Assembly: GCA_963662665.2 (NCBI GenBank)
Contig: CAXXJS010000040.1
Coordinates: forward strand, 224,001-288,000
From: Candidatus Latescibacterota bacterium
Lineage (GTDB): Bacteria; Latescibacterota; UBA2968; GCA-2709665
DNA length: 64,000 bases
Direction: 5' to 3'
Positions 31,945 through 55,027 of this stretch are shown here, piece by piece. The position numbers and the translations under genes were made by a program. The notes under the pieces were generated by a model. It saw only the letters and a program-made list of their open reading frames with translations. It did not search any database and was not told the origin of the DNA. Position 1 is the stretch's first letter. Every line of letters begins with the position of its first letter.

Positions 31945-32020
31945 GTAATCCCTCCCATTTGGACGAGGCAATAGCGGCAAACGGAACGAGCCGGATCCAC
32001 GTCGAGTGTCGACATTGGCG

Positions 32021-32857
32021 TTACGCCGTCAGACAGAGTCCCCCGTCAGCCGCCGTTTCGACCGGCTCGCCTCTGCCTTTTGACACCAAATTGAACCAGC
32101 ACATTCCAACCAGGACCAGAAAAACGCCGCAGACATGCAGCCACCACGGAAGCATCGTCCCTGTGCTGAAATCATCCAGTGATCCAAAAACCTCCAGGTG
32201 CGTGGACGTCACTATCAGAAAATTGTTCAACGCGTGTCCCACAATCGCTGGAAGCAGTGAACCGGACCGGACGACCCACCATGCGAATACGAGCCCCAGT
32301 ATCAGAGCCGTGGGATATCGCCACGGGTGCAGGTGAGATATAGCGAATAGCAACGCAGACCAGACAATGGCCCGATTCCGCGTTCGGTGAGCCAACAGGC
32401 CGCCCAGTATAACGCCTCTGAAGAGGACTTCCTTTACAAGCGGCGCCTGCACCACCATGGCATAAAACGTGAACATGTACGGCGTCTCTCTTCGTGCCGA
32501 CCCCCCGAACAGGTCTTGCACACTTTCGGGCACCGGTATCAGGTGCCGGAACAGATTTCCCAGGTCCGATCCAACAATTGCCAGTCCGACAACGCACACG
32601 CCGAGCGGCAGGTACAGTTGCCACGAAACGGGCTTGAGCAGCAGGATGTCGGACCACGTCCGGTCCGTTCGACGGTATGCGTACATTGCCGTCAAAATGA
32701 AACTGGCCAGTATCAAGAACTGGATTACGTAGGGACTCTTGAACAAGGGCCGGTCGAGAATGGCGCCAAGAACGCCAAACGGCAAGCCTACCACCATGCT
32801 GAACAGGAAAAACAGCACCACCAGCCAGAAGGATTGCTTTAAATTCGGATACGCCAT
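32021..32857 (-). CDS. CPBP family protein with degenerate EExxxR motif (KEVLFRG)
   Basis: FAISH and HALNN retained; first Glu replaced by Lys. Confidence 0.88.
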   Translation of the reverse strand: MAYPNLKQSFWLVVLFFLFSMVVGLPFGVLGAILDRPLFKSPYVIQFLILASFILTAMYAYRRTDRTWSDILLLKPVSWQLYLPLGVCVVGLAIVGSDLGNLFRHLIPVPESVQDLFGGSARRETPYMFTFYAMVVQAPLVKEVLFRGVILGGLLAHRTRNRAIVWSALLFAISHLHPWRYPTALILGLVFAWWVVRSGSLLPAIVGHALNNFLIVTSTHLEVFGSLDDFSTGTMLPWWLHVCGVFLVLVGMCWFNLVSKGRGEPVETAADGGLCLTA

Positions 32858-33503: not shown

Positions 33504-33720
33504 AAAAAAAATCCCGCATCATCCCCTCGCCATTCGGTGATGAACTTTCCTTCGGCACCCCGATTAAAGGGTGCCGGGCAGTGTCACCACTCACGCAGCT
33601 TTGAGGATGCGGGAAGGTCCTACGTATTCGCCGGGGACAAGGGAGCTACCCCTGCCCCTGAATGTCGGCTATTGTATTCGGTAGGCTACCCGACATACGG
33701 GTCCTGCCCGAGTGGTGACA
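33504..33720 (-). ncRNA. candidate structured non-coding RNA, family not recognised
   Basis: 11-bp closing helix (33710-33720 with 33582-33592), internal hairpins, crossing 9-bp pairing (33606-33614 with 33512-33520), U8 tail, TTGTTT-N17-TATATT just upstream. Confidence 0.55.
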
Positions 33721-33826
33721 ACCGAAATATAATTTCTGTGAATGACAAAAACAAGGGCAAATTTGCTTTTCTACGGAGACGGGTCGATCTGAGAGTAGCG
33801 AGGCCATAGACGCAGGCCACGTTTAA

Positions 33827-34773
33827 CCTTGATTCGCAAGTGCGCCGTGAAAAGGCGCGGAACTTCAGTGGGTGAGAGTCCCACCCGACAGATGTTGCCA
33901 CAGTCGGAAGCAATCGGAGCGGAGACGTAGGTAACGACATCTCCGAAGCCTCCGGTGTAGAGGGTCGCCAGGCGACTCGGCGAGTATGTGGGCTGAAACG
34001 TGAGTAAACGCTGAGCAGGCCTCGAAAAGGGTAATGCGGGAGCCGACCCGGCTTGCGAACGGGGAAGGCCGCCGTCGTTGGGGAAGCAGGCAACGAGAGC
34101 ACCCAACGGTCCCGCCGGGGTAATGGCGGAGGCACGCATACAAGGAGATCCGACGCAACACGGGAAGCCCCAGCGGTGGTGGAGAGCCACCAACCGGAAG
34201 CCCGTGAGGGCCAGGCCGGGCCGTATGGGGTGGCGGACAGGCTCGTAGTACCTGTGATGCCGGGTAACGCCGGCGGAGGAAAGGGGCCTGACTTCGGATG
34301 TGCTTGTGAAGGGGACAACTGTCGGGAGAGTGGCGCAAGCCTATAACCTCCTCCAGAATAAGACGAGGCGACTCCAGATCAAGCTAAGGTTTCAGGTGAA
34401 GCTGTCCGGGCAGATCGGGCAGTGTGTACCTGAAGGCGATGTCCGTCGGAGAGCCGGATGCGGTAACTCCGCACGTCCGGTTCGACGAGCGGGATGTGGA
34501 AACGGAGCAGGGAGGGGCTATTGAGGCACCGCCAGACGAAAGGGGCGGGAACAGACAGGCCACTCCTAAACCACCGCGCCACATCTCGACTCTACTTCTT
34601 CGGGGAAGTAAAACCGAATATATGCAAGTAGATAAAGGCGATTTAACTTCTGATTACCAGGATACACCAGGTCACTGGACGTGGACTGAAAAAACGTCCT
34701 TTTTAACGACCGTTACGCCCCGTTTCAGGGGTTTTCGTCGCGTTGCCGAGTTGCTGTTTTTTTCACATTGAGG
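33827..34773. mobile_element. MITE copy 1 (about 190 bp, CC...GG ends, IS1380-like), interrupted by a group II intron
   Basis: 33827-33839 plus 34596-34773 is near-identical to 46251-46442; TTAA on both sides. Confidence 0.8.
33840..34595 (+). mobile_element. ORF-less group II intron (756 nt)
   Basis: 5' GTGCG; domain V gagccggatgcggtaactccgcacgtccggttc (34451-34483); domain VI ending ctcgactctAC; EBS1 TTGCGA (34053-34058) complementary to exon TCGCAA; no RT ORF. Confidence 0.93.
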
Positions 34774-34891: not shown

Positions 34892-35710
34892 CTACTCCCG
34901 GTTCTCCTTCCCGGCTTCCTGAATCGGATACCGTATGTCCGCACGCTGCAACTCACCTTGAAGCCACTGGCTGAACAGCGTGTCGCGAATTTCGCTTATG
35001 ACGCGTTCGTCCAGGGCCGCCGGATATTTCCGCTGAAGCATATACAACGCGAAACCGCCGGACGCCTTCTCAGGTCCGAAGATTTCACCTGACGAGGCCG
35101 CGAAGAGCCGTGCGGAAATCCCCCCCGGCAATTGCGCGCGACGAACGCGCCCCATATATCCGCCGGCCGGTCGGGTCCGCTCATCCTGCGAGAATTCACG
35201 GGCCAGTGCGCAAAAATCGGCCCTTTCTTCCCGCGTCTGGAGCCCGATCTCCTCAATTACCGCTCTTTCCCGGTGGAAAACCCAGCAGACCTCCGCCTCG
35301 TCGAAATCAAGCGTGTGTTGAGCGAAGTATGACTCGACCCGTCCTTCTGCGACTTTTTCAGACAGCATGCGCTCCAGCCGCCTGGCCTGGGCCTCTTCGG
35401 CCACGTCGTCCAGGGCGATCCCTCGCGAAACGAGCCATGCCTGGGTGTCTTCCACCCGTTCCAGGCGATGTCGATACCGCCAATCGTCCACGGCACGCTG
35501 GATGTCTTCGGGCGTCGCGAGAACGCCTTCCCGGACGGCAAGCTGCCGCACCAGTTCTTTGCGTGCGAATTCACCGAAAAAATCGAGTTTGTCCGCAACG
35601 CCCAGTTGACGTACGACCCGTTTGAGCGACACGTCAATGCCATTCACCCGGACCAGCGTTATTTCAAGGGCCGTGGTTGAGGATTCATCTCCCACCTGAT
35701 GCCGCATCAC
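34892..35710 (-). CDS. parvulin (PpiC-type) peptidyl-prolyl isomerase / foldase of the export locus
   Basis: F..LAREFSQD....AGGYMG.V.R..L, GEIFGP; overlaps the hlyD stop. Confidence 0.85.
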   Translation of the reverse strand: MMRHQVGDESSTTALEITLVRVNGIDVSLKRVVRQLGVADKLDFFGEFARKELVRQLAVREGVLATPEDIQRAVDDWRYRHRLERVEDTQAWLVSRGIALDDVAEEAQARRLERMLSEKVAEGRVESYFAQHTLDFDEAEVCWVFHRERAVIEEIGLQTREERADFCALAREFSQDERTRPAGGYMGRVRRAQLPGGISARLFAASSGEIFGPEKASGGFALYMLQRKYPAALDERVISEIRDTLFSQWLQGELQRADIRYPIQEAGKENRE

Positions 35711-37107
35711 ATAACCCCCGGCTGCTCAATTGACGTTTCCACGGCGTCGTACGTTGCGGACTCATACAGCTTTCTCAAAGGACTCAACAGCATCAGCAGG
35801 ACAGATTGACGGTCCGTCATGATCTCCGCTGTTCCCTTCATGCCGAACAGCAGCGGCTTCTGCTGTCCCTTTACGGCCATCGTGGTTTCTTCCAATTCAA
35901 CGAGACCCTTGAAGATCGGCCCGACGCGCTCATCGATAGTGGCATCGGGCGAAAGCTGTTTCAGCCACCCTCGTTTGATGCCGAAATCCTGAAATGCAAA
36001 TGCGTCATATTTCAGTTTTACTATCTGTCCGGGTTTAAGCAGACCCACGTCCTTGTTCAATACGGCGAGTTCGGCAACCATTGGCGCAGAGGCCGGCGCC
36101 ACTGAAATCAACGTCTGCCCCTTGCTGATCACCTGGCCCAGGGTGTTCACCATCACCTGCGTTACGATGCCCGGCTCCGGCGCCAGAATCAGGTCCGATT
36201 CGGCTTCCAACTGGCGGTCGACCCGTTTGCGCGCCTGTTCCAGTCTCAATCGCGCGGTTTCATATGCATGTCTCATCTGCGAGGTCTCGCGCCGGTGTGC
36301 GATGCGTGCTTCGAGAATCTGCCGTTTGAGATCCTGGACTGACGCCTCGTTCTTGTAGATTTCCGACATGCGTCCCGGAAGCGCCGCCAGAGCGCTGAGG
36401 TACCGCACCCGGGCACGATTGATTTCCGCAGTACTGATCAGCTTGCGTTCATATAACTTTTTCTGCTGCATGTACTCCTGTTTCAATTGATCGATTTCAG
36501 CCTGGCGAAAGCCGATTTGCGCATCCAACTCTTCGTTTATTGCGCTCCCGCCCGCGGAGTCGGCGTGACCCACGTCCGCCCGGTAATCCTGCAAGGCATC
36601 CTGATGCGCCGCCATGAACCGCTCCAGAACAGAGAGCCGTGTCTTCAATGAGGCCATCGTTTCCCGGTTCAATTCCGTCCTCTGGGGCAACACGTGGTGA
36701 AGATCGTACCTGGCCTTCCGATACGCCATTTCCGCCTGTTCCAGTTCGCGAAGGTCTCCCCAGGTTTCCCATGATTTCAGTTTGAACAGCAACTGGCCTT
36801 CTTCGATGCGATCGCCTTCCCTGACGCCAATGTGCTCGATCTCACCGCCGCGACGGGCCTGCAGCGTTTTCACCTTGCCCAGCGGAACCAATTGGAACGG
36901 CGCCGACGCCACGACGTCCACCTTTCCCCACCACGCCCAGATCACGGCGATTCCGACAAACAGAAGCACGAGATACAGCAACGCCCGCCCCCAGAACGGC
37001 CGGAGAGATCCCACGAACGCCTGCATCTCTTCTGCGCCGCCGTCCCGTACCGGGAGTACGATCGGGGACGCTGCCCCTGGCGAGGACGTCCGGGCGGGTT
37101 CTGCCAT
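35707..37107 (-). CDS. hlyD: HlyD family membrane fusion protein
   Basis: N-terminal TM helix, VREGD.I..GQ.L, coiled coil, V.LKYDAF.FQ.FG, GM.GTAEI.T. Confidence 0.92.
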   Translation of the reverse strand: MAEPARTSSPGAASPIVLPVRDGGAEEMQAFVGSLRPFWGRALLYLVLLFVGIAVIWAWWGKVDVVASAPFQLVPLGKVKTLQARRGGEIEHIGVREGDRIEEGQLLFKLKSWETWGDLRELEQAEMAYRKARYDLHHVLPQRTELNRETMASLKTRLSVLERFMAAHQDALQDYRADVGHADSAGGSAINEELDAQIGFRQAEIDQLKQEYMQQKKLYERKLISTAEINRARVRYLSALAALPGRMSEIYKNEASVQDLKRQILEARIAHRRETSQMRHAYETARLRLEQARKRVDRQLEAESDLILAPEPGIVTQVMVNTLGQVISKGQTLISVAPASAPMVAELAVLNKDVGLLKPGQIVKLKYDAFAFQDFGIKRGWLKQLSPDATIDERVGPIFKGLVELEETTMAVKGQQKPLLFGMKGTAEIMTDRQSVLLMLLSPLRKLYESATYDAVETSIEQPGVM

Positions 37108-37134: not shown

Positions 37135-40100
37135 TCAGACCGCCTGCAACTGCTGGCTGCACATATGAAAATAAAGACCGCGTTGAGCCATCAGTTCATC
37201 GTGCGCGCCCACATCGGCGATATGGCCCTTTTCCATGACGACAATTGTATCTGCATCCCGTACGGTGCTCAATCGATGAGCGATAACGAGCGCTGTGCGA
37301 TTTTCGAGGAATAGCGCAAGATTGGATTGAATCGCACTTTCCGAGTCGGTATCAAGCGCATTTGTCGCTTCGTCGAATATCAATATTTTCGGATCGCGAT
37401 ACAGCGCCCGGGCGATTGCAATCCGTTGCCGTTGACCGCCGGACAGTCCGATTCCCTGTTCGCCCACCTTCGTCTCGTATCCCAAAGGCATATCGCTTAC
37501 GAAATTGTGGACGCATGCCAACCCGGCTACTTCCAGCAGCCGGTCAAGATCCGCGTCGGATTCGCCCACCGCGATGTTCTCCGCAATGGTGCCGCTGAAC
37601 AGAAACGAGTCCTGCATAACCATCCCCACCTGGCGTCGGAGCCAGTGAGGATCGAAATCGCGTACGTCCATCCCGTCCAGAACCACGCGACCTTCCGAGG
37701 GATCGAACAGGCGTGGAACGAGCTTTACGAGCGTGGTCTTACCCGCGCCGCTGCGGCCGACAATGGCGACTTTCCGGCCGGGTTCCAATTCCAGGTTGAC
37801 GTTGTTCAACACGTAGGGTTCGTCGGAACCGACGGCGTACCGGAAGAACACCCCGTCGAACGCAAGCCGACCCTCGACCTGTTTCAGCCTCAGGCCGTGT
37901 CCTCGCTGGCGCGCATCCTCCATCCTCGAGTCGTAGACGTCATTCAGCCGATCCAATGCGACCCGGGCTTCCTGGACCTCCGGCCAAACGCCGATCAGTC
38001 CCATAATGGGTCCCATTACATTGCCGATGAGGGCATGGAACGCCATCAACTGACCCACCGACAACTCGCCCTCGATCACCAGGGAAGCGCCATACCACAA
38101 TATTACGGTGGAACTCAAGAGGTTGATCATACTTCCGCCCGCGCCGAACAACATCTCCATTTTCAGCCGCCGAAACCCGATCTGAATTTCCTTCGTAAAC
38201 TTGCCCTCCCACTGCCATCTCGTAACCCGCTCGACGGATTCGGCTTTCACCACGTCAATGCCATGCAGCGAATCGATCAGAACGGAAGACTGTTCCGCCC
38301 GCGCAAGGAAAGCTCGCTGGCTGAAGGACTTCAGAATAGGAGTATAGATCAGCGTCAGCCCCACGGACAGCGGCACGAATATCAACATCACGAGCGTCAA
38401 TTCCCAGTTGTAGTAGAACATCAGTCCGAGATAGACGAATAGCATGACAAAGTCGAGTATCGCCGAGATGGTGGTGTCCGTAAAGAGGCGCTGAATCGTG
38501 GCGTTTTCCTTGAACCTCGTGGTCAGATCTCCGGTACGGCGCAGTGCGAAAAACCGCATGGACAGACCCAGCAGATGCCGGTAGAAACGGGACAGCATGG
38601 TCAGGCTCAACCGGGCGCTCATATACCCGATCAGATACGCGCGCAGCGTCGAGGTGCCCATTTGGAACAGCGCCACCACGACCATGCCCGCCAGCATCAG
38701 GTTCAGGAGATCCTTATCATGGTGAACCAGCACCTGGTCGACAATCGTCTGCGTAAAGATAGGCGAGGCAAGGCCGAATAGGCTGAGTACGAGGGACGCC
38801 AGCAGCACCTCGATCAGGATGGGCGCATAGGGCTTGATCAAAGGCAGGAATCGTTTGAAGGAAGACCTGGAGGGTTCATTCTCCGCAACCTGGTCCGTAT
38901 ATTCCAACAACAGCGCCATGTTGGTCCAGCTTTTCTCGAACTCCGGACGCTTCAACCGTCGAAGGCCCAAACCGGGATCGGCTATTCTCACCTCCTTTTT
39001 GGTGATTTCATACAACACAACGAAGTGGTTGCCTTCCCAGTGCAGTATCGCCGGCAGTCCGGTCCGCATCAGCGCTTCATAGCCCGTTCGCACGCCCCGC
39101 GTGACAAACCCCAGCGTCTCCGCCGCCTCAGCCAATGCCGCCATCGACGTACCGTCCCGAGACACGTTGCACATATCGCGCAGCCTGTTCAGTCCGATCG
39201 GCATCGTGTAATACTTGCAGATCATCCCCAGACACGCTGCGCCGCAATCGGACTGATCGTTCTGTTTCAGGAAGGGAAAACGAAACGACGTTGGCGCCGC
39301 CTGTCTAACTTCATCCGTATCGCGATCCCCGTTACCGGATGGCCGACCGTTCGTCTCAGCCAGATTGCTCCCGTCCGGCCCTCCCGCCGCGATCCGAGTT
39401 CCGGTGCGTCGCGTCGGGGAAGACAGCGACCTGTCCGATTCCTGCTCCGGGGGCAATCGCCGGGCTGCCTCGCGCAGGGACACCAATGCTGGAATTGCAT
39501 AGCTGAGGCGATCGAAGTCGTCTCTTTCCAAATAATAGATAACGCAATCCCCCCGACCGCGGATCGTCCTCGGCTCGCCGCGCGAAGCATCCGTATCCTC
39601 GAAAAAATCACCCGCGACCAGCGTCAGCGCACGACCATCCTCCGAGGCTACTTCCAACTGACCCTTGCCCACCAGGCAGAACCGCCCGCGCGAGCGACCG
39701 GGTTCCGAAACGGTCGTTCCATCCGCGACGTCTGCGCGCGTCATTCGCCGTAACAGCTCTCCCCACGCGTCTCCCGGGACAGACCCTTTCAGATACCGGG
39801 TGAAGTTCCGAAAGGCGATGTTCCTGACATGGTCCTGGAGATGCGCCTTCAGTTCCGGTTCTCTCTTCAACACCTTGAAGAATTCATCCAGGGGTACCCG
39901 CAGCACACTGGAGTCCTCAACCGCGCGCACCGTCGCCCGATGCCCGTCGCCTGTAAGCAGCGCCCCTTCGCCGAAGTGATCGCCGGCGTACAGAAAGCCC
40001 AGGGTTTCCGGTTGGCCATCCGCACTCTGCTTGATCACCCTCAATCGACCCGACTGAAGAATGCAGAAGACATCACCGGTTCCCCCTTGATCGAAGACGA

Positions 40101-40170
40101 CCGACCCGAAAGGAAACCGAACGGACTCTGACTGAACGGACTCTTCTAAAAACGGGGACAAGACGTCCAT
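37135..40170 (-). CDS. peptidase-containing ABC transporter (cNMP-like domains + C39 + TMD + NBD)
   Basis: GDHFGEGALL; QNDQSDCGAACL, HFVV, ADP catalytic triad; GRSGAGKT, LSGGQ, DEAT, AHRLST. Confidence 0.95.
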   Translation of the reverse strand: MDVLSPFLEESVQSESVRFPFGSVVFDQGGTGDVFCILQSGRLRVIKQSADGQPETLGFLYAGDHFGEGALLTGDGHRATVRAVEDSSVLRVPLDEFFKVLKREPELKAHLQDHVRNIAFRNFTRYLKGSVPGDAWGELLRRMTRADVADGTTVSEPGRSRGRFCLVGKGQLEVASEDGRALTLVAGDFFEDTDASRGEPRTIRGRGDCVIYYLERDDFDRLSYAIPALVSLREAARRLPPEQESDRSLSSPTRRTGTRIAAGGPDGSNLAETNGRPSGNGDRDTDEVRQAAPTSFRFPFLKQNDQSDCGAACLGMICKYYTMPIGLNRLRDMCNVSRDGTSMAALAEAAETLGFVTRGVRTGYEALMRTGLPAILHWEGNHFVVLYEITKKEVRIADPGLGLRRLKRPEFEKSWTNMALLLEYTDQVAENEPSRSSFKRFLPLIKPYAPILIEVLLASLVLSLFGLASPIFTQTIVDQVLVHHDKDLLNLMLAGMVVVALFQMGTSTLRAYLIGYMSARLSLTMLSRFYRHLLGLSMRFFALRRTGDLTTRFKENATIQRLFTDTTISAILDFVMLFVYLGLMFYYNWELTLVMLIFVPLSVGLTLIYTPILKSFSQRAFLARAEQSSVLIDSLHGIDVVKAESVERVTRWQWEGKFTKEIQIGFRRLKMEMLFGAGGSMINLLSSTVILWYGASLVIEGELSVGQLMAFHALIGNVMGPIMGLIGVWPEVQEARVALDRLNDVYDSRMEDARQRGHGLRLKQVEGRLAFDGVFFRYAVGSDEPYVLNNVNLELEPGRKVAIVGRSGAGKTTLVKLVPRLFDPSEGRVVLDGMDVRDFDPHWLRRQVGMVMQDSFLFSGTIAENIAVGESDADLDRLLEVAGLACVHNFVSDMPLGYETKVGEQGIGLSGGQRQRIAIARALYRDPKILIFDEATNALDTDSESAIQSNLALFLENRTALVIAHRLSTVRDADTIVVMEKGHIADVGAHDELMAQRGLYFHMCSQQLQAV

Positions 40171-40459: not shown

Positions 40460-41308
40460 TTAGCTCCTAACTGCGTCCGACTCGGCATCCGCAGGCGGAT
40501 CCAGGCCCAGGGAAATCTGTTGTGTGTCGTTTGAAACCCGGTAAAACCACCACAGTCCAAGAGCAGCCAACAGCATCCCCGACGCACTCCACCACCAGGG
40601 ATTGAACGCAACTTCGTTAAGGTCTCCTGAAATGTCCAAATGACGAGAATAAAAATGTATAGCGGTCACGGCGATGAGGTTGTTCAACGCGTGCCCGAAC
40701 AACGCCGGCAGCAGTGACCCGGTACGGATTACCCACCAGGCCCAGACAACGCCCGATCCAACAATAGGCGCCAGTTTCCAGAGATCCAGATGCATCGCAC
40801 CAAACAGAACCGCCGTCCAGATAATGGCGGAAGGCCTTGTATGATGCGCCAGCAGACCGCTCAGGATAATTCCCCTGAACAGCAACTCTTCCCCGAACGG
40901 AGCCACTATGACTGCTCCGAACAGCGCAGACATAAAGGATGTTCTGCTGAAGATCTCCAAACGATAGATCTCTTGTATCCACTCCGGCACAGGAACGATG
41001 CGAGTCACGACTTTCATCAATTCAGTATCGAGCATCCCCAGACCGACTACTGAAATTGCAACGCAGGGCCATACCCGCGAATCAAAATCCCTGTTGAACA
41101 GATGCCGTACGTATTTCCAGTCCAGATCGGCGCGGCGATACACGTAGCCCAGAATGACAACGAAATTTGCAAATAACAGAATTCCCAGCACGAAGTCGTC
41201 GTCCAGCTGCCACCCGTCAACAATGGCCACAGGAATTGCCAAAACTGCCTGAACCAGCAGGAATAAAACCAACAGCCAAATCGCCTGCCTCAGGTTCGGA
41301 TATGCCAT
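40460..41308 (-). CDS. CPBP (Abi/CAAX) intramembrane metalloprotease
   Basis: EELLFRG, FGAMH, HALNN; shared MAYPNL start. Confidence 0.9.
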   Translation of the reverse strand: MAYPNLRQAIWLLVLFLLVQAVLAIPVAIVDGWQLDDDFVLGILLFANFVVILGYVYRRADLDWKYVRHLFNRDFDSRVWPCVAISVVGLGMLDTELMKVVTRIVPVPEWIQEIYRLEIFSRTSFMSALFGAVIVAPFGEELLFRGIILSGLLAHHTRPSAIIWTAVLFGAMHLDLWKLAPIVGSGVVWAWWVIRTGSLLPALFGHALNNLIAVTAIHFYSRHLDISGDLNEVAFNPWWWSASGMLLAALGLWWFYRVSNDTQQISLGLDPPADAESDAVRS

Positions 41309-41405
41309 CGACGTCTTACCAGATTTCGTGGCCGGCCTTGATTGATGGCAATCAGTGCGTTCAAGCATGATCTTTCCTGGATTCGTTTCGGATCGTTAGG
41401 CGATC

Positions 41406-41652: not shown

Positions 41653-42465
41653 TTACAGTGCGGGCGTCTCCCCGGCGGGAAATATGATGAAACCCACTTC
41701 CGACGGGTGATCCTGAATCCATCTGTCATTGTCATATCTGCGAGCCCTTAATAAAACCATGACATCTCCCGCACACCCGGCGAATGTAACACTCAAGAGC
41801 AAGACCGACCAGATCGCGGGATCCCACAACAGCACCAAACCAGCAACGGGTGCGGTAACTATCATCGGCAAGACCGCGAATACCCGGAAAGCGCAGACCT
41901 TCATCGGTCTGTCGGCGTGACAGTACAGCGCCCCCAATCGCCAATTGATTCCAAAGTGCAGCGATCTTATTGGGACTCTTGCCCAAGTCAACGCGGCAAG
42001 GCCGTGAATCGCTTCGTGAGTCACAAACAGGGCGATTATACATCCAATCAATTTCCATAGATCGGCGAGCGGGAATTGCAACTCAATTGCCCAGAGAAGC
42101 AAGGCATCTACCACGACGATAGACATTCCCGAAAACCATAACATCAAAAAGGACAGGTTGTGGATATCTTCTTTGTAAAATACCACTTCGGAGACCTTTT
42201 GATTCTCGGCCGTATCTATTTCGCCCGTGCTCGCCTCAAGGAGTACGGAGAGTGCGGTCACCATTCCCGCTGCAGTTACGAAGAATTTTCCTCGGAAGAT
42301 AATAAACGAGACTGCCTGAACAACCAGGACCGCCAGCAGAATGGCTAATTCGATTTGAAAGACGTATCTGAGAATCAGCATGGCAGGCAAAACGGAAAAT
42401 AACCCGTACAATATAGCCGTGAGAATCCAACGACTCCACATTCCCCCTGGGAGGAAATCCTTCAT
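41653..42465 (-). CDS. DUF3267 putative membrane zinc protease with extra N-terminal TM helices
   Basis: HEAIHG, FG.NW...YCH, GD, IQDHPSEVGF. Confidence 0.82.
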   Translation of the reverse strand: MKDFLPGGMWSRWILTAILYGLFSVLPAMLILRYVFQIELAILLAVLVVQAVSFIIFRGKFFVTAAGMVTALSVLLEASTGEIDTAENQKVSEVVFYKEDIHNLSFLMLWFSGMSIVVVDALLLWAIELQFPLADLWKLIGCIIALFVTHEAIHGLAALTWARVPIRSLHFGINWRLGALYCHADRPMKVCAFRVFAVLPMIVTAPVAGLVLLWDPAIWSVLLLSVTFAGCAGDVMVLLRARRYDNDRWIQDHPSEVGFIIFPAGETPAL

Positions 42466-42563: not shown

Positions 42564-43418
42564 CTATTCGCTTTCTCCTGGCGTTTCTCCCGTCTCAATC
42601 GCGTCCGGTGCGGCTGATTTGGTGTTTTGAGAAACCCGGTAAAACCACCACAGTCCAAGAGCAGCCAGCGCCACCCCGGTTGCACTGAACCACCAGGGAT
42701 TGAAAACCACGACGTTCAGGTCTTCTGCCACCTCGAAATATGGTATTTCGAAACGCAAAGCCGTCACTCCAATGAAATTGTTCAATGCGTGGCCGACCAG
42801 AGCAGGCCACAAGGATCCCGTCCGGATATACCACCAGGCGAATACGAACCCGTACAGTAGGGCCGGGGGAAATTGCCAGGGGTTCAGATGGCCCACGCCA
42901 AACAGAAATGCCGACCAGAAAATCGCCCGGTTCCTGGTATAGTGTGCCAGCAAACCGGTAAATATCGCGCCTCTGTATAGTAACTCTTCGACGGACGGTG
43001 CGACAAACACTGCACGGAATACGGCTGAGGAATAAGATGTCTTGCGCCCGAACTCCGATCCAAAAATATCCTGGATGAAATCGGTCATCGGAATTAGGCG
43101 AATCACCACTTTGTCCAATTCCAATAGAACCATCCCCAGGCCAACGATCGAAATTGCCACACAAGGCCATACGCGCCAATCAAAGTCCGTATTCACCATT
43201 TGCGATAGGTCTTTCCATGTTCGATCCGTGCGGCGGAAGACATAACGCAAGAAAACGTAATAAACCACCAGAGTTAGACCTCCAGTCAAGAGGTTTTCGT
43301 GTCGAAAACTCTCGCCAAGGATGGTCTGTACAAAGTGGATGATGAGTCCCAAGACAAATTGTGTTATCCAGAATAGTACCACTAACCAGATGGACTGCCG
43401 CAAGTTCGGATACGCCAT
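42564..43418 (-). CDS. CPBP (Abi/CAAX) intramembrane metalloprotease
   Basis: EELLYRG, FGVGHLNPWQ, HALNN. Confidence 0.9.
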   Translation of the reverse strand: MAYPNLRQSIWLVVLFWITQFVLGLIIHFVQTILGESFRHENLLTGGLTLVVYYVFLRYVFRRTDRTWKDLSQMVNTDFDWRVWPCVAISIVGLGMVLLELDKVVIRLIPMTDFIQDIFGSEFGRKTSYSSAVFRAVFVAPSVEELLYRGAIFTGLLAHYTRNRAIFWSAFLFGVGHLNPWQFPPALLYGFVFAWWYIRTGSLWPALVGHALNNFIGVTALRFEIPYFEVAEDLNVVVFNPWWFSATGVALAALGLWWFYRVSQNTKSAAPDAIETGETPGESE

Positions 43419-43650: not shown

Positions 43651-44256
43651 TCACTCGAATGGGGTCTGCCCGTCCGGCCAGATGAAACATCCAGGTTCTG
43701 ACGGGTGATCTTTTACCCACAGGTCGCTACGATAATCCTGGACCCTAAAATACGTCAATACATCTGCTGCACTGGCCGAAAATGCTAGACAGAACAAAAA
43801 AAGTGTCCAGATGGCCGGATCCAACAAAAGCACAAGACCGGTCACCGCCGTGGTGACCCCGAGAGGCAGAAGCAAAAAGACACGAAACGCACCCATCCTT
43901 ATCGGTCGCGAAAAATGGCAATAGGGGGCGAGCCATTTCCATTTGAATCCGAAACGAATCGAACTGAATGGGACGTTGCCCCACTGCAATGCGGCAAAGG
44001 CGTGTAGCGCCTCATGAAAGACGACGACCAGAATTGCGCAAGCCAGAAACATCCAGCGGTCGCGATTGGTGAAGCGGAAATCGATTTCCCATAAATTGAC
44101 CATCTCGCCTACGAAAACAAGAGTAGAAGCGAACCAGAACATTACTAAGGAAAAAACGACCATATAGACTTTGTTTACGCGTACCTCAAGAATCTCGTGC
44201 CCGATCTTATCTCGATCGCGAAATCGCCCCGAATCGACCTCATCATTCGTCGGCAT
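43651..44256 (-). CDS. DUF3267 putative membrane zinc protease
   Basis: HEALH, FGFKWKWLAPYCH, DHPSEPG; GAGGA RBS before MPTNDE. Confidence 0.82.
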   Translation of the reverse strand: MPTNDEVDSGRFRDRDKIGHEILEVRVNKVYMVVFSLVMFWFASTLVFVGEMVNLWEIDFRFTNRDRWMFLACAILVVVFHEALHAFAALQWGNVPFSSIRFGFKWKWLAPYCHFSRPIRMGAFRVFLLLPLGVTTAVTGLVLLLDPAIWTLFLFCLAFSASAADVLTYFRVQDYRSDLWVKDHPSEPGCFIWPDGQTPFE

Positions 44257-44471: not shown

Positions 44472-44765
44472 TCAGAGATTCGACATCCCGTCAGCCATGC
44501 CGGACATTAGGTCGCCGGCGACGAAGTCGAGGGCGTCGCGGGCCCTGTCGTAATACCATCTAGCAGTTTCAGGTATTCCTGTCGGATTAGTAACAATATT
44601 GACGGCGAGACCAACAACAAAACCGACAAATATCGGATTCAGTCCGCCTGATATTTCGGCCATGAATTGTTCACTTAACACTTCTTGCTTCGTTGGCAGG
44701 GCCGTACTCACAGAGAATCCGTAATTGCCATTTGTCGCCAATGGAATAGCCAATCCATGAGTCAT
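44472..44765 (-). CDS. double-glycine leader peptide precursor (41-aa leader, 56-aa core)
   Basis: AGGAGG RBS; leader ends LPTKQEVLSEQFMAEISGG; hydrophobic core LNPIFVGFVVGLAVNIV... Confidence 0.85.
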   Translation of the reverse strand: MTHGLAIPLATNGNYGFSVSTALPTKQEVLSEQFMAEISGGLNPIFVGFVVGLAVNIVTNPTGIPETARWYYDRARDALDFVAGDLMSGMADGMSNL

Positions 44766-45193
44766 GATGTCCTCCTGAAGAGTTAATGGGACTTGCTGTT
44801 TTGCATCAAATTAACCCGAATCGTCACGTTACGGTAGCGGTGTCTATTCCCGACGGTCATTGGGTTCAAGAATCGTGTTGTACTCTTCGTCGGGATGTCA
44901 GATCCCGTGCTCCTTCGATAACCTTAGCGGTCGATCTGCGTCTGATTATCCAGGATCCACCGGACCCCAATGTAACATGGACCGACGCTCTATCACGGCC
45001 TTTCTCGGCCGCTTCGGCGAGGCCCCGGCAGGACCCGTCGCCCGACACTGAATGCAACTTGGGCAATTCTTCGTTGGATTGAATTGTGGACGATTCCATG
45101 TGGGTTCACGGAATCTTCTGAGAAGCCAACTACATCAGTAGTCGATTTCGGCAGGATAAATTACTTTCCGCCTGACAGACCCCACACTCGATT

Positions 45194-45394
45194 TCAGTCG
45201 TCGAAATAATCGACGATGGCCTCTACCGCCATTATGACAAGGCTCGTCCTTAAAAAACCTCCCCCAACGGGTAACAAACCAATTCCACCAGATGCATTCC
45301 TCATTTCGCGCCGCACAAGATTGGTTTCCCGACCTGGAAGTTGGGCACAGTTCGCGAAGGCCTGCACGGGTTGCAGCTGAATTCGCTCTGTCAT
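45194..45394 (-). CDS. double-glycine leader peptide precursor (37-aa leader, 29-aa core)
   Basis: AAGGA RBS; leader ends LPGRETNLVRREMRNASGG; core IGLLPVGGGFLRTSLVIMAVEAIVDYFDD. Confidence 0.75.
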   Translation of the reverse strand: MTERIQLQPVQAFANCAQLPGRETNLVRREMRNASGGIGLLPVGGGFLRTSLVIMAVEAIVDYFDD

Positions 45395-45475
45395 TTCACC
45401 ACGTCCTTTCTGTTTTGTTTCTGTTATGAACACGTGAGTTTTCCATCCGAACTTTATCTAAGTGCTTCAACTCCA

Positions 45476-45682
45476 CTACAGGACCGGACCGGACGACCTG
45501 TCCGGCTCCGGCAACGTTACGCCGAAAATTTCAGCGACCAGATCTCTGATGAGGCGCCCAAGCCCGGCGTCTCCACCGGAGATTTGCGCGGTCTGCCAGG
45601 CGGTCAAGTCCTCCGTCTGAATCGGCAACCGAGACGGAATTCCGGAAGCGTCCGCAGGGCCTGATACAATTCGTCTGCTCAT
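45476..45682 (-). CDS. double-glycine leader peptide precursor (37-aa leader, 31-aa core)
   Basis: AAGGAGGTGAT RBS; leader ends LPIQTEDLTAWQTAQISGG; core DAGLGRLIRDLVAEIFGVTLPEPDRSSGPVL. Confidence 0.82.
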   Translation of the reverse strand: MSRRIVSGPADASGIPSRLPIQTEDLTAWQTAQISGGDAGLGRLIRDLVAEIFGVTLPEPDRSSGPVL

Positions 45683-45910
45683 GTCTATCACCTCCTTTCG
45701 TCGACATCCCCGCGATATCCAGTCCGTCTCCATTATCTCTGTTCGTGTAGCTGGATCCGCATCGCTGAGATGCCTTGATGTCCGAAGCGCTTCGTATGCC
45801 TCTTTTGCGATTACGGCACACGCCCCGATCGGGCGGCTTCGGTTGCAAATATCGGCAATTACCTGTTACGCGACACCCGCTGCCGGTGACTCCGTCGACG
45901 CATTGAACTC

Positions 45911-45925
45911 GCAAGGATTGTGCCA
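45911..45925 (-). promoter_or_regulatory. sigma54 (-24/-12) promoter of the precursor operon
   Basis: Minus strand TGGCAC-AATCC-TTGC, a consensus match about 230 bp upstream of the first precursor. Confidence 0.75.
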
Positions 45926-46250
45926 CTCCCCATGCCCCGACGCATAACTGTCTGGCTTGCAAACGCGGATTATTTTTGAACTGTTGTCAGGTTGCCGTGG
46001 CGCCGCTCGTTCTTGAAAAATGTGTTCCACTTCTCGTTACTAAAACGAAACGATGTTGCATTTTGGACGACGACGAATACACCGTGAAGCATTGCAAAAA
46101 AAAGACACCGGCGACAAGAGCCACCGATGTTCGATCCAATAAGAAACTTCAGATGGGAAATTTCAGCCTACGCTCGGCGGGCAATCTCGCGAAGGGTATC
46201 TGGTCAACAAAACGCAATGTCGACCAGCGAACTACCCGTTAAGAAACTTA

Positions 46251-52476: not shown

Positions 52477-53613
52477 TCATCTCTCGCTGACGGGTTCCCA
52501 TCGGCGGCCCGTCGCGCCGACGTATTCCGCCCGCGGCCGTATAATCCGATCCTGCGCCTTCTGCTCGAGTCCGTGCGCCGTCCACCCGCCAACGCGCCCC
52601 ACCGCAAACGTGGGCGTGAACAACGCGGACGGCAGACCCAGCCCGTGCAGCAGCAGCGCCGTATAGTACTCCACGTTCGTCTCCAGGTTCCTACCCGGTT
52701 TGTATTCGGCCAGCAGCCGCACGGCGGCCCGCTCCACCTCCCGGGCGAGATCGTACAGCTCCCTGTCGCCTTCAGACCGGAAGAATCGGGCCGCTTCCGC
52801 TGCGAGCACGTCCGCGCGCGGATCCCTCACATTGTAAACCGCGTGGCCGAACCCCATCAGCCGTTCACCGCGTTCCAGTTTCGCCCGCAGATAAGGTTCA
52901 ACGTTATCCCTGGTTCCGATCTCGAACACCATGTCCAGCGCCGGACCGGGCGCGCCGCCGTGCAGCGGTCCCTTTAGAGCGCCAAGGGCGCCCGTTACCG
53001 CCGAGGTCATGTCCGATCGCGTGGACACGATCACCCGTGCCGTAAACGTGGATGCATTCATCCCGTGATCCGTCACGGTGTTCAAATACGTTTCGATTGC
53101 GCGGTTTCGCGATGGGCCGGATTCTTCGCCGGTGAGCATGTACAGGTAATTCGCCGCATGCCCCAGGTCGCCGCGCGGCGCAATTGGCTCCGAACCGTTC
53201 AGCAACCGCCAGTACGCCGCGACCAACGTGGGAAACCGCGCCACAACCGTCAACGCACCGGTGCGTTCGTCCAAAGACGCAGGGCATCCGAGACTCAACG
53301 TACTTACGCCCATCCGAAGCGCGTCGATCACCGGCGCCCCCCCTGCCGCCGCCGCCCGAAGCAGCGAGATGGTCGCCTCGGGAAGCGGGCGGGCTATTGC
53401 CAGCGCCTCAGTGACCTCGTTCAATTGCCGGGCATCCGGAAGCCGATCGTTCCACAACAGGTGGAGCATCTCTTCGTATGATGCGTTGTGCGCCAGCGAT
53501 TCGAGAGGAAACCCGCCAACGATCAGCTCCCCGGCGTCGCCATCGATCCTGCTAAGCAGGGTCTGCGCGGCGACTACGCCTTTAAGGCCGGGAACATAGC
53601 CCTTTTCCGGCAT
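52477..53613 (-). CDS. citrate/methylcitrate synthase family protein
   Basis: DHGMNASTF, GPLHGGA, MGFGH.VY..DPR, NVEYY; GGAGGAGG RBS. Confidence 0.92.
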   Translation of the reverse strand: MPEKGYVPGLKGVVAAQTLLSRIDGDAGELIVGGFPLESLAHNASYEEMLHLLWNDRLPDARQLNEVTEALAIARPLPEATISLLRAAAAGGAPVIDALRMGVSTLSLGCPASLDERTGALTVVARFPTLVAAYWRLLNGSEPIAPRGDLGHAANYLYMLTGEESGPSRNRAIETYLNTVTDHGMNASTFTARVIVSTRSDMTSAVTGALGALKGPLHGGAPGPALDMVFEIGTRDNVEPYLRAKLERGERLMGFGHAVYNVRDPRADVLAAEAARFFRSEGDRELYDLAREVERAAVRLLAEYKPGRNLETNVEYYTALLLHGLGLPSALFTPTFAVGRVGGWTAHGLEQKAQDRIIRPRAEYVGATGRRWEPVSER

Positions 53614-53700
53614 CTGAACCTCCTCCATTTGACGCGCATTCGCGCCGGGTTTGCGTACACCGTTACGTTTTTCCGGCAAATTTCGCTTGTATCCTGAATT

Positions 53701-53750
53701 CTATATAATTGATATATATTGTCAATCTTGATTTTAAAATCAATATATAG
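53701..53750. promoter_or_regulatory. palindromic operator candidates between divergent citrate synthase genes
   Basis: TTGATTTTAAAATCAA (53728-53743, perfect) and TTGATATATATTGTCAA (53709-53725). Confidence 0.6.
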
Positions 53751-53785
53751 TATCTTTGTCATAATCGAAGAAAGGGAGTTGCGCC

Positions 53786-55027
53786 ATGAAGAACACTCGA
53801 TATCTCACCGCCAGGGAGGCTGCCGGCGAACTGAATATCGCCGTGGACAGTCTCTACGCCTACGTGAGCCGCGGACTGATCCGCTCCGAGGCAGTGGGGC
53901 GCAACCGTCGCTCTCGACGGTATTATGCCGACGACGTGCAGAAACTCAAGGCAAGAAAAAAGGGCCGTAGAGACCCGGAGACGATCGCGGAAGACGCCCT
54001 GCACGCGGGGGCGCCGGTACTCGAATCGGCCATTACACTCATCACCGACGACTGCGTCTACTACCGGGGTCGCAACGCCCTGGTCCTTGCCAGACACTGC
54101 AGCATCGAACAGGTAGCGGCGCTCATCTGGACGGGAAATCCCGAAACGGAGATTCCAGCGCCGGCCACTCCGGATGACAAGGCCTTTTCGGGGAGAATTC
54201 TTGGGGGCTTGCAACACGTTGCGGAACTGCGGCCCGTCGACGCCTTTCAGGTTCTGTTGCCCCTGGCTGCGACCGAAGATCTTTTTGCCTTTGACCTTCA
54301 TGCCCGTTCGGTCGTCCGGACCGGGAGCCGCATCCTCTACCTGCTCGCAGCCCTTGCGTCCGGAGGGGAAATCACGGCCGGAGGCATTGCCCGGAACCTT
54401 CAGCGCGCATGGGCCCCGGACGACGAACACGCCGCGTTCCTCATCAACGCCGCGCTGATTCTGTGCGCCGATCACGAACTTAATGCGTCTGCCTTCACCG
54501 CGCGATGCGTAGCCTCTACCGGTGCGACACCCTATTCCGTGGTGACGGCAGCCCTCAGCGCCTTTCAGGGATACAAACACGGCGGGGCCAGCGAACAGGT
54601 CGAGGCGCTCTTCCGCGAGATGGAAACGCAACCCGATGTCCGGCAGGCCTTGCTGGCCAGGCTCAAACGGGGCGAAACGCTACCTGGTTTCGGTCACGTG
54701 ATATACCGGGACGCCGACCCGCGGGGCAAACTGCTGCTCCGGTTGCTCCAGGAATCCCGCGGAGACCACCCCGATGTCCGCCTCGCGCTGACCACGGTCC
54801 GGGCCGCGGCCGAGGTCTCCAGCCTCCCGTTCAATGTCGACCTCGCGCTGGCCGCGCTCGCCCGCGTACTCAACCTGCCACCGGGTGGCGCGATGACGCT
54901 GTTCGCCCTGGGCAGAACCGTGGGCTGGATCGGTCACGCGATCGAACAGTACCGGATCGGACGGATCATCCGCCCGCGCGCCCGGTACGTGGGCGAACTC
55001 CCGGAGGAAACGGCATCGATCCGGTAA
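53786..55027 (+). CDS. HTH (excisionase-like) plus citrate synthase-like fusion, probable regulator
   Basis: YLTA.EAA..L.I...SLYAYVSRGLI; ADHELNAS, HGGA, PGFGH, NVD. Confidence 0.9.
   Translation: MKNTRYLTAREAAGELNIAVDSLYAYVSRGLIRSEAVGRNRRSRRYYADDVQKLKARKKGRRDPETIAEDALHAGAPVLESAITLITDDCVYYRGRNALVLARHCSIEQVAALIWTGNPETEIPAPATPDDKAFSGRILGGLQHVAELRPVDAFQVLLPLAATEDLFAFDLHARSVVRTGSRILYLLAALASGGEITAGGIARNLQRAWAPDDEHAAFLINAALILCADHELNASAFTARCVASTGATPYSVVTAALSAFQGYKHGGASEQVEALFREMETQPDVRQALLARLKRGETLPGFGHVIYRDADPRGKLLLRLLQESRGDHPDVRLALTTVRAAAEVSSLPFNVDLALAALARVLNLPPGGAMTLFALGRTVGWIGHAIEQYRIGRIIRPRARYVGELPEETASIR

Follow-up and report, generated by a model that had tools for sequence, protein, structure and literature searches.

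The window analysed here, a 64,000-nucleotide stretch from an uncultivated Candidatus Latescibacterota bacterium, raises the question of whether three small open reading frames (ORFs) at positions 44472-45682 are real genes, what unites them, and what their products might do. A first-pass annotation had proposed that they encode peptides with a shared leader and unrelated cores. All three lie on the minus strand inside exactly this span, and are here called pepA, pepB and pepC (Table 1).

The annotation had also assigned a ribosome-binding site (RBS) to each ORF, and each has one: AAAGGAGGTGA for pepA, the same in all 13 upstream regions aligned from the genus, CAGGAGGA for pepC, and the weaker AAAGGA for pepB. 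The start codons are backed by N-termini that are conserved among orthologues. The ORFs could be chance reading frames and their common motif a coincidence, a reading that fits their shortness and the zero matches of pepA and pepB to Pfam and NCBIfam models. Several observations speak against it. Across the 9.72 million residues of the six-frame translation of the complete 4.86-Mb genome, the proposed motif, LPx5Lx4[MT]x2[IA]SGG, is found three times where composition predicts 0.014, and these occurrences are pepA, pepB and pepC; a looser version also occurs three times, with 1.2 expected. Because the motif was drawn up after the three peptides had been seen, independent proof comes from orthologues: the genes are kept in 20 loci, with starts and RBS conserved. 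A non-conserved control ORF (44866-45099), in the gap between pepB and pepC, has a stop codon within its frame in the closest relative. The existence of orthologues already refutes a chance origin, to which we give a negligible probability, and the three genes are real.

The control ORF was itself rejected as a gene, since it has no RBS and its frame is disrupted in that relative. A supposed relic of a further, fourth peptide in the pepB-pepC interval was also rejected: its tblastn matches were all weak (best E 0.003, against a database of 429 bp).

Table 1. Features of the peptide locus, in coordinates of the window.
Feature	Position	Strand	Description
Intrinsic terminator	46105..46130	(-)	11-bp stem and T run; conserved in 12/13 upstream regions
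Sigma-54-type -24/-12 promoter element	45911..45925	(-)	Upstream of pepA; TGGCAC-N5-TTGC
Conserved 5' leader RNA	45683..45900	(-)	~215 nt; 16-bp long-range helix just before the RBS
pepA	45476..45682	(-)	68-aa precursor: 37-aa leader ending SGG, 31-aa amphipathic acidic core, first residues DAGLG
pepB	45194..45394	(-)	66-aa precursor: 37-aa leader ending SGG, 29-aa hydrophobic acidic core, IGLLP...DYFDD
pepC	44472..44765	(-)	97-aa precursor: 41-aa leader ending SGG, 56-aa core, first residues LNPIF
DUF3267_1 (D1)	43651..44256	(-)	S2P-like intramembrane zinc protease, HEALH and distal D; PF11667, 53 bits (cut-off 27.1)
CPBP_1	42564..43418	(-)	Rce1-like (CAAX/Abi) glutamic intramembrane protease; PF02517, 75.3 bits
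DUF3267_2 (D2)	41653..42465	(-)	Longer S2P-like protease with HEAIH; PF11667, 49.2 bits
CPBP_2	40460..41368	(-)	Second Rce1-like protease; PF02517, 68.7 bits
PCAT	37135..40170	(-)	1011 aa: two cNMP-binding domains, C39 peptidase, ABC membrane domain, ATPase
HlyD-type membrane fusion protein	35707..37107	(-)	TIGR01843, 216 bits (cut-off 208.65)
PpiC-type rotamase-like protein	34892..35710	(-)	PF00639
Two further CPBP genes	32857-32021, 31980-31090	(-)	No neighbouring peptide gene; motifs read

Homologous leaders had been predicted to stand near PCATs in other genomes, and on the genomic side this holds. A leader profile gives exactly three matches in this genome (92% complete), at 51-66 bits, and is positive in 42 of 168 genomes of the phylum, all from two families of one order. 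Orthologues of all three peptides occur in 20 related loci, with the gene order preserved and the same transporter alongside; these comparisons show synteny and co-inheritance. By tblastn (E<1e-5), pepA orthologues were found in 15 of the 20 loci; a related-locus search with the 8 closer pepA rows gave 6 loci. The alignments comprise 14 orthologous sequences for pepA, 10 for pepB and 24 for pepC, whose family forms 25 clusters among 5.8 billion proteins. Identities in leader and core are 57 and 31% for pepA, 58 and 33% for pepB, and 52 and 36% for pepC. Between species the locus varies in the manner of a cassette. Within this genome the system is unique: the three leader matches, the one C39 domain and the two DUF3267 genes all occur here.

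The leader had been described as a gap-free motif of 19 residues, with LP at -19/-18, L at -12, T or M at -7, I or A at -4, and SGG. These positions are as stated (M at -7 in pepB and pepC, T in pepA), but the homology is not limited to 19 residues. In profile-profile comparison by hhalign the shared region takes in the whole leader: the three alignments span 39, 35 and 36 columns, at probabilities of 93.2, 94.9 and 94.7% and E-values between 2.9e-7 and 4.1e-8, and end at the GG or at most two residues past it. With GG at -2/-1, L at -12 and I or A at -4, all three have the features of the double-glycine consensus, which calls for G-G (or G-A or G-S) at -2/-1 and hydrophobic residues at -4, -7 and -12 (PMC3140520). 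As had been noted, the leaders exceed classic class II leaders in length. At 37, 37 and 41 aa, with conserved N-termini, they are more than twice as long as the 15-18 aa of class II microcin signal sequences (PMC12219008).

The proposal of a new leader subfamily is borne out in part. The family is distinct, as the lack of Pfam and NCBIfam matches for pepA and pepB indicates, but L at -12, the hydrophobic residues at -7 and -4 and the GG are the classical consensus, and only the LP box and the N-terminal part are new. The leader has two parts: its last ~13 residues form a classical double-glycine signal, and the N-terminal ~24, LP included, form a lineage-specific extension with an R-hydrophobic-x-S-x-P box, often followed by C-x-x-L-P. 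No Pfam or NCBIfam model covers this extension, which is specific to one bacterial order. Among NCBIfam models, NHLP, Nif11 and other curated leader models gave no match at E<=1 for the three peptides, and no NCBIfam or Pfam leader model recurred among 31 wider family members.

The cores were described as unrelated, Cys-free, hydrophobic or amphipathic and net acidic, and they are: those of pepA, pepB and pepC cannot be aligned, contain no Cys and carry charges of -2, -3 and -3. The three genes encode paralogous precursors united only by a common 37-41-aa leader. Acidity was thought to set these cores apart; it is less odd than claimed, since cyanobacterial NHLP/N11P precursors are mostly negative in charge (PMC3140520). 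In the family catalogued here, 51 of 64 cores are net negative. The predicted mature pepA and pepB are about 3 kDa. Residues 1-20 of the pepC core form a hydrophobic segment of helix length (mean hydropathy 2.09), and no such transmembrane-length segment was found in pepA and pepB. After this transmembrane-length helix in pepC would come a C-terminal helix that is long, conserved and acidic and contains the motif W-Y-x-D-R. An AlphaFold2 model of pepC from a 24-row alignment places helices at 44-59 and 61-94, at low confidence (mean pLDDT 50.4), and was too poor for a fold search.

Some evidence links pepC to class IIb bacteriocins. The window's own pepC reaches 11.8 bits (E 0.16) against TIGR03949, below the 21.5-bit cut-off, and 7 of its 24 relatives match at E<=0.1 (best E 2.3e-5), one of them named at NCBI as a TIGR03949-type class IIb bacteriocin; in the pepA family 0 of 15 match. 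Like the lactobin A/cerein 7B peptides of this model, pepC has a Gly/Ala/Val-rich helix after the GG leader end; unlike them, it carries the acidic W-Y-x-D-R helix, which is absent from the 45-position model. Neighbours in the protein atlas that carry the names bacteriocin or colicin V reach 0.82-0.86 and, like all atlas hits, stay below 0.9, so they are leads only.

An intrinsic terminator closes the upstream unit, so that the peptide operon starts after it. The putative sigma-54-type element ahead of pepA is the only exact copy of TGGCAC-N5-TTGC in the window, where 0.12 are expected, and is kept in 13 of 13 aligned upstream regions. Within the structured 5' leader RNA, helix 5 is 94.7% paired and has compensatory changes in 4 of its pairs. 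Together, the promoter element and the structured leader suggest conditional, regulated expression. No sigma-54 activator was found beside the locus in the window's flanks; at least 11 are encoded elsewhere in the genome.

Downstream of the peptides lie two DUF3267 and two CPBP genes, followed by the C39 exporter, HlyD and the PpiC-like gene. The PCAT, 4.3 kb downstream of the peptide genes on the same strand, holds the only C39 domain in the genome, and the synteny is likewise found in the 20 related loci. Its Pfam order is PF00027 twice, PF03412, PF00664 and PF00005, with HlyD and then PF00639 encoded next. Residues 298-1006 match PCAT1 (4ry2) at E 4.6e-128, and the protein also aligns with ComA and HlyB. 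The adjacent PCAT and membrane fusion protein genes are the pair used for one-step export of class II microcins out of Gram-negative cells. The PpiC-like protein scores 93 bits against TIGR04500, below the 180-bit cut-off, and no hydrophobic segment was found in its sequence.

This arrangement resembles the cyanobacterial group I/II 'long type' PCAT-HlyD-SurA clusters (Wang et al. 2011), among them HetC and PteB/EbfG1-4, in which cNMP, C39 and ABC domains, HlyD and a rotamase occur together (PMC3140520) and tandem small GG peptides lie upstream (PMC4997328). Here too, CAP_ED/cNMP domains stand N-terminal to C39-ABC, with HlyD and the rotamase protein adjacent. The present system belongs to another phylum and has a leader family that is not NHLP, Nif11 or HetP. 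In the available text of the cyanobacterial survey (PMC3140520), DUF3267 and CPBP pairs are not among the components described for the clusters, and 'CAAX' has no occurrence.

The catalytic motifs of all the membrane proteases are intact. CPBP_1 has EExxxR, FxxxH and HxxxN, and the HExxH (HEALHA) and distal Asp of D1 are invariant in 12 of 12 D1 sequences. The D1 ORF may start as far upstream as 44349, and the true start of CPBP_2 is probably the internal MAYPNL. The two further CPBP genes have 42% identity to CPBP_1, and one to three CPBP genes follow the PpiC-like gene in 11 of 20 related loci. A DUF3267 gene directly follows pepC in 10 of 10 loci with pepC. Within the genus it is always pepC's own clade (D1), which all 7 loci with pepC have and none of the 6 lacking pepC, where one locus holds a D1 fragment. 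The co-occurrence counts overstate the support, as the genomes are related and hence not independent. The D2 clade is present at 12 of 13 genus loci in the tree (12 rows), and the thirteenth (L036) has a D2-like fragment only. A proposed link of D2 to the two pepA core variants was rejected, as the clades do not match. DUF3267 is absent from 12 of 42 leader-bearing genomes and is therefore not a general part of the pathway.

We hypothesize that the peptides of this locus are class II microcin-like, mostly anionic and exported by the PCAT, and that the accompanying protease genes serve immunity or handling, a reading we hold at about even strength. The operon would be transcribed from the sigma-54-type promoter through the structured 5' leader, and the precursors would dock on the cytoplasmic C39 domain of the genome's only PCAT and be cleaved after the GG. 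Export would proceed through the PCAT and its HlyD adaptor to an outer-membrane channel whose gene lies outside the locus, as suggested by the C39, ABC and ATPase domains of the PCAT, the HlyD score above cut-off and the fit of leader positions -12, -7, -4, -2 and -1 to the consensus. Through its two N-terminal cNMP-binding domains the pump may be gated by a nucleotide. Once released, the small and mostly anionic peptides, of which pepA is amphipathic, pepB is hydrophobic and pepC has a transmembrane helix, would most likely be directed against relatives in the manner of class II microcins. The CPBP and S2P-like DUF3267 proteases may each confer immunity to a particular peptide or help to handle it, D1 being reserved for the membrane-spanning pepC. 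A toxin/immunity function is suggested circumstantially by the cassette-like variation of the locus, the pairing of pepC with D1, the peptide-less CPBP genes behind the transporter and the TIGR03949 matches of pepC relatives. CAAX/Abi proteases have repeatedly been reported as bacteriocin immunity proteins (PMC9298176), and the immunity proteins of class II microcins usually span the inner membrane (PMC12219008).

With class II microcins the locus shares small ribosomal precursors, a GG motif with hydrophobic -4, -7 and -12 positions, an adjacent C39 ABC transporter and HlyD adaptor, and inner-membrane proteins encoded alongside (PMC12219008). It differs in the length and conserved N-terminal box of the leader (15-18 aa in microcins; PMC12219008), in candidate immunity genes that are proteases (CPBP, DUF3267) rather than small membrane proteins, and in the two cNMP-binding domains of the PCAT. 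Counting against the microcin reading are the anionic cores, the size of mature pepA and pepB when class II microcins are 5-10 kDa (PMC12219008), and the position of the window's own pepC under the TIGR03949 cut-off. So do EbfG1-4/PteB, GG peptides with a proven non-antibiotic role, and the leader-bearing genomes without DUF3267. Proteases of both kinds also have other known roles: the CAAX proteases SagE, MroQ and SilX mature peptides rather than protect against them (PMC9298176), and DUF3267 has so far been demonstrated only as a leader protease, TmcP (PMC13712780).

The peptides might instead be secreted signals or extracellular matrix or surface components of the EbfG1-4/PteB and HetC type, processed or sensed by the membrane proteases, which we consider rather unlikely. 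Besides the 'long type' layout of the exporter (CAP_ED, C39, ABC) with HlyD and a rotamase protein (PMC3140520), there is the precedent of PteB/EbfG in Synechococcus, where four tandem GG peptides have a role in biofilms and the transporter is said to have a HetC-like domain organisation (PMC4997328). HetC, a cNMP-bearing PCAT, binds ppGpp and has no substrate named in the available account (PMC10986499), and MroQ and SilX are CAAX proteases that mature signalling peptides (PMC9298176). Anionic, Cys-free, amphipathic cores and the suggestion of conditional expression from the promoter and 5' leader would also fit. However, no receptor kinase or regulator lies within the conserved locus, the way in which a peptide and its own membrane protease come and go as a module, together with peptide-less CPBP genes, is more typical of toxin/immunity sets, and some pepC relatives pass the bacteriocin model.

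A somewhat more doubtful alternative is that pepC, and perhaps pepB, is matured in the membrane like a TMcin: the helix would insert, D1 would cut at the membrane face, an ABC transporter would extract the product and the CPBPs would cut further, making the proteases biosynthetic. In the Gram-positive TMcin pathway (TmcA/TmcP), the S2P-like DUF3267 protease TmcP, encoded beside the precursor, cuts a 45-residue leader off a precursor that is integrated in the membrane, and the product retains its transmembrane helix (PMC13712780). The likeness lies in the two PF11667 proteins above cut-off in the cluster, in the 41-residue leader of pepC, followed at once by a 20-residue hydrophobic helix that the mature peptide, in pepC only, is predicted to retain, in the constant adjacency and co-inheritance of pepC and D1, and in the invariant D1 catalytic residues. 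Yet the two conserved disulfide Cys of TMcins (PMC13712780) are absent from the pepC core, as from the other two, no disulfide-forming or escort protein candidate is evident among the conserved genes, and no TmcD- or TmcE-like gene was recognised at the locus. The 12 genomes that carry the leader but lack DUF3267 and the lack of a membrane segment in pepA also argue against it. Unlike TMcin clusters, the locus has a C39 PCAT and a Gram-negative-type export set with HlyD, and with a perfect GG site in pepC and an intact C39 domain, a second leader protease is not needed.

On a further, more novel reading, in our view also rather unlikely, the N-terminal box of an order-specific two-part leader could be a second recognition element, read by the cNMP region of the HetC-type PCAT, by the PpiC-like protein through the invariant Leu-Pro, or by the proteases. 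The leader would feed a set of diversifying anionic peptides into export, including a membrane-spanning one handled by a dedicated DUF3267. Were this so, in-membrane TMcin biosynthesis would have a Gram-negative counterpart in this locus, and PCATs of the long type would gain natural substrates to which they are genetically linked.

PCATs with an N-terminal cyclic-nucleotide-binding domain are widespread. The commonest cyanobacterial group in Wang et al. has few linked precursors, 0.35 per cluster (PMC3140520, Table 2), and HetC, the best-studied member, is still without a known substrate (PMC10986499). Because the only PCAT of this genome lies directly behind three clear substrates, the locus offers a clean model for cargo recognition, for the extra domains and for the rotamase partner. 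The recent finding of DUF3267 as a peptide-leader protease comes from Gram-positive TMcin clusters (PMC13712780); its place here, beside a GG peptide that spans the membrane and within an export set of Gram-negative type, poses the question of whether it is an immunity or a maturation factor. With this family, mostly anionic cores of an uncultivated lineage join the candidate microcin-like peptides, and the family's leader is a lineage-specific long version of the classical double-glycine export leader. For this uncultivated bacterium, the locus most likely serves microcin-like competition or signalling.

The minus-strand ORFs pepA, pepB and pepC, three small peptide-precursor genes, exactly span 44472-45682, and the 19-residue stretches that the first-pass annotation had aligned in them are present as quoted and align without gaps. 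Its description of the genes also holds: the leaders are 37-41 aa long, the cores lack Cys and are net acidic, and each ORF has a ribosome-binding site, strong in pepA (where it is identical across 13/13 upstream regions of the genus), CAGGAGGA in pepC and a weaker AAAGGA in pepB. The pepC core opens with a hydrophobic stretch of helix length (residues 1-20). When the complete 4.86-Mb assembly is translated in six frames (9.72 million residues), the annotated motif turns up three times against 0.014 expected, always at this locus; as the motif was drawn up from these same sequences, conservation carries the decisive weight. The 428-bp pepB-pepC gap commonly holds a second pepB-type gene in relatives, absent from this genome. 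A 77-aa ORF there (44866-45099, minus) was rejected as a gene, as it lacks a ribosome-binding site and a stop codon breaks it in the closest relative.

Features of the peptide locus and its surroundings
Feature	Position	Strand	Details
Terminator	46130-46105	minus	strong; ahead of peptide operon
Sigma-54-type -24/-12 element	45925-45911	minus	TGGCAC-N5-TTGC; ~230 nt upstream of pepA
pepA	45682-45476	minus	68 aa; leader 37 aa; core charge -2
pepB	45394-45194	minus	66 aa; leader 37 aa; core charge -3
pepC	44765-44472	minus	97 aa; leader 41 aa; core charge -3
DUF3267_1 (D1)	first downstream	minus	PF11667
CPBP_1	second downstream	minus	PF02517
DUF3267_2 (D2)	third downstream	minus	PF11667
CPBP_2	fourth downstream	minus	PF02517
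PCAT	fifth downstream	minus	1011 aa; two cNMP-binding, C39 peptidase, ABC membrane and ATPase domains (Pfam)
HlyD adaptor	sixth downstream	minus	exceeds TIGR01843 cut-off
PpiC-type rotamase-like protein	seventh downstream	minus	weak match; TIGR04500 sub-threshold
Two further CPBP genes	31090-32857	minus	past group II intron remnant
Group II intron RNA domains	33866-34003, 34449-34595	+	RF02003 89.7 bits; RF00029 35.7 bits, below gathering score

Querying 61 related genomes with the DUF3267 protein encoded next to the peptide genes, then retrieving 18-20-kb regions, yielded 20 loci that share this layout, so homologous leaders do stand beside PCATs elsewhere. Using tblastn and motif scans, we found orthologues of all three peptide types in these loci, with conserved start codons. 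Mean pairwise identity is higher in leaders than in cores (57% vs 31% for pepA, 58% vs 33% for pepB, 52% vs 36% for pepC). Profile-profile alignments among the three families cover 39, 35 and 36 columns (probability 93.2, 94.9 and 94.7%; E 2.9e-7 to 4.1e-8) and begin near residue 3, ending at GG or no more than two residues past it. The cores are thus unrelated behind a common leader, as first proposed, but the common part is the entire leader rather than 19 residues. Its last ~13 residues match the double-glycine consensus (L at -12, hydrophobic at -7 and -4, GG; PMC3140520, in part), and the N-terminal ~24 are additional, with L at -19 invariant and P at -18 nearly so.

A 37-position leader profile built from 34 leaders has exactly three matches in this genome and matches in 42/168 genomes of the phylum. 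These fall in two families of one order (18/21 and 23/31 genomes, excluding that of the window), with none in 115 genomes of the other twelve families. Among 1.84 billion representative proteins there were 49 matches at E<=0.001, of which 42 are peptides of 54-147 aa matched N-terminally; the other seven, long multi-stretch proteins, are regarded as spurious. None of ten matches looked up had a functional name. The pepC family comprises 25 clusters among 5.8 billion proteins, and the four with source names read 'hypothetical protein' (three) and class IIb bacteriocin (P0015).

Many different core types carry the leader across the fetched loci. Among 64 catalogued cores (leader >=35 bits, leaving out 25 of 89 unique rows), 51 are negative, 10 neutral and 3 positive. 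Some peptides of family f2 (L034, L041, L045, L068, L071, L073, L076, L083, L085, L086) have leaders ending in G-L instead of G-G, with Gly/Ala-rich or long, acidic, Cys-containing cores, implying either an atypical cleavage site or different handling. Three loci of the same genus as the window (L015, L050, L065) have a further core type behind a pepC-like leader: a hydrophobic segment that ends in a Cys run and then basic residues.

Downstream, on the same strand, lie D1, CPBP_1, D2, CPBP_2, PCAT, HlyD, the PpiC-like gene and two more CPBP genes; the DUF3267 proteins are S2P-like and the CPBP proteins Rce1-like intramembrane proteases. PCAT residues 298-1006 align to PCAT1 (E 4.6e-128). All catalytic motifs are present (HExxH and a distal Asp; EExxxR, FxxxH and HxxxN; the C39 Cys- and His-containing motifs). 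The only C39 domain of this genome (92% complete) and both of its DUF3267 genes belong to this locus. The two further CPBP genes share a MAYPNL-type N-terminus with CPBP_1 and CPBP_2, adjoin no peptide gene, and in one of them K-E replaces E-E in the first catalytic motif; 11/20 related loci have one to three such peptide-less genes after the PpiC-like gene. The group II intron domains lie between the PpiC-like gene and this pair, with no obvious intron-encoded protein; the 210-aa ORF encoded opposite them (33686-34318) is without a Pfam match and seems spurious. Elsewhere in the window (52477-55027) are two divergently placed citrate-synthase-family genes, the second with an N-terminal MerR/HTH-like segment.

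Across 21 loci (the window and 20 relatives), pepC occurs in ten, each time with a DUF3267 gene directly after it. A maximum-likelihood tree built from 31 DUF3267 proteins divides those of the genus into a D2 clade (12 rows, one each in 12/13 genus loci, L036 having only a D2-like fragment) and a D1 clade (10 rows, 7 loci). D1 is found in 7/7 genus loci with pepC and 0/6 without it, one of the six keeping a 107-aa D1 fragment. As the genomes are related, these counts do not represent independent events. The leader does not always come with DUF3267, which is matched in 30/42 leader-bearing genomes; one of the 12 without it has eight leader peptides.

The exact sigma-54-type element occurs once in the window (0.12 expected) and is kept in 13/13 relatives; outside the window's flanks, the genome encodes at least 11 sigma-54 activators. 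Between 45683 and 46130 (minus) there are conserved boxes, inverted-repeat-like TGCAAC..GTTTCA. The conserved ~215-nt 5' leader RNA of the operon contains a long-range 16-bp helix (94.7% paired, 4 compensatory pairs) with a covariation score of 0.224 vs 0.164 for shuffles and <=0.072 for slid partners. It could be a regulatory RNA or attenuator that has so far gone unrecognised in the peptide operons of this genus.

The export core resembles the cyanobacterial 'long type' PCAT-HlyD-SurA clusters (Wang et al., PMC3140520, in part), and the peptides qualify as double-glycine peptides. Their leaders exceed the 15-18 aa of class II microcin signals (PMC12219008, in part), as the first-pass annotation had it, and its suggestion of a distinct leader family is upheld, since the leader is order-specific and is matched by no curated model in Pfam or NCBIfam. 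We regard the locus as a variant of the double-glycine type: its extended leader family is specific to one order, its cores are anionic and it encodes paired intramembrane proteases. In the literature on cNMP-domain C39 transporters, DUF3267 bacteriocins and Latescibacterota bacteriocins (main texts) we found no paper on it, and the available portion of one Latescibacterota/sponge preprint does not mention such peptides.

By analogy, we consider it highly probable that pepA, pepB and pepC serve as substrates of PCAT, being cleaved behind GG and leaving via PCAT and HlyD. The main alternative to an antagonistic role is that they would serve a secreted, non-antibiotic function, like EbfG1-4 exported with PteB (PMC4997328, in part) or the cargo of HetC, a transporter with no known substrate (PMC10986499, in part). 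Alternatively, and overlapping with our preferred reading, pepC might be matured inside the membrane by D1, as TmcA is by the DUF3267 leader protease TmcP (PMC13712780, in part); against this speak the GG site in pepC, the missing Cys pair of TMcins (no Cys occurs in any of the three cores) and the existence of leader-bearing genomes that have no DUF3267. For the function itself we favour, with roughly even confidence, a microcin-like competitive role in which the CPBP and DUF3267 proteins would act as peptide-specific immunity or handling proteins, because the locus varies cassette-like, pepC and D1 form a module, CPBP genes without a peptide exist, CAAX/Abi proteins have a known immunity role (PMC9298176, in part) and pepC relatives partly match a class IIb bacteriocin model.
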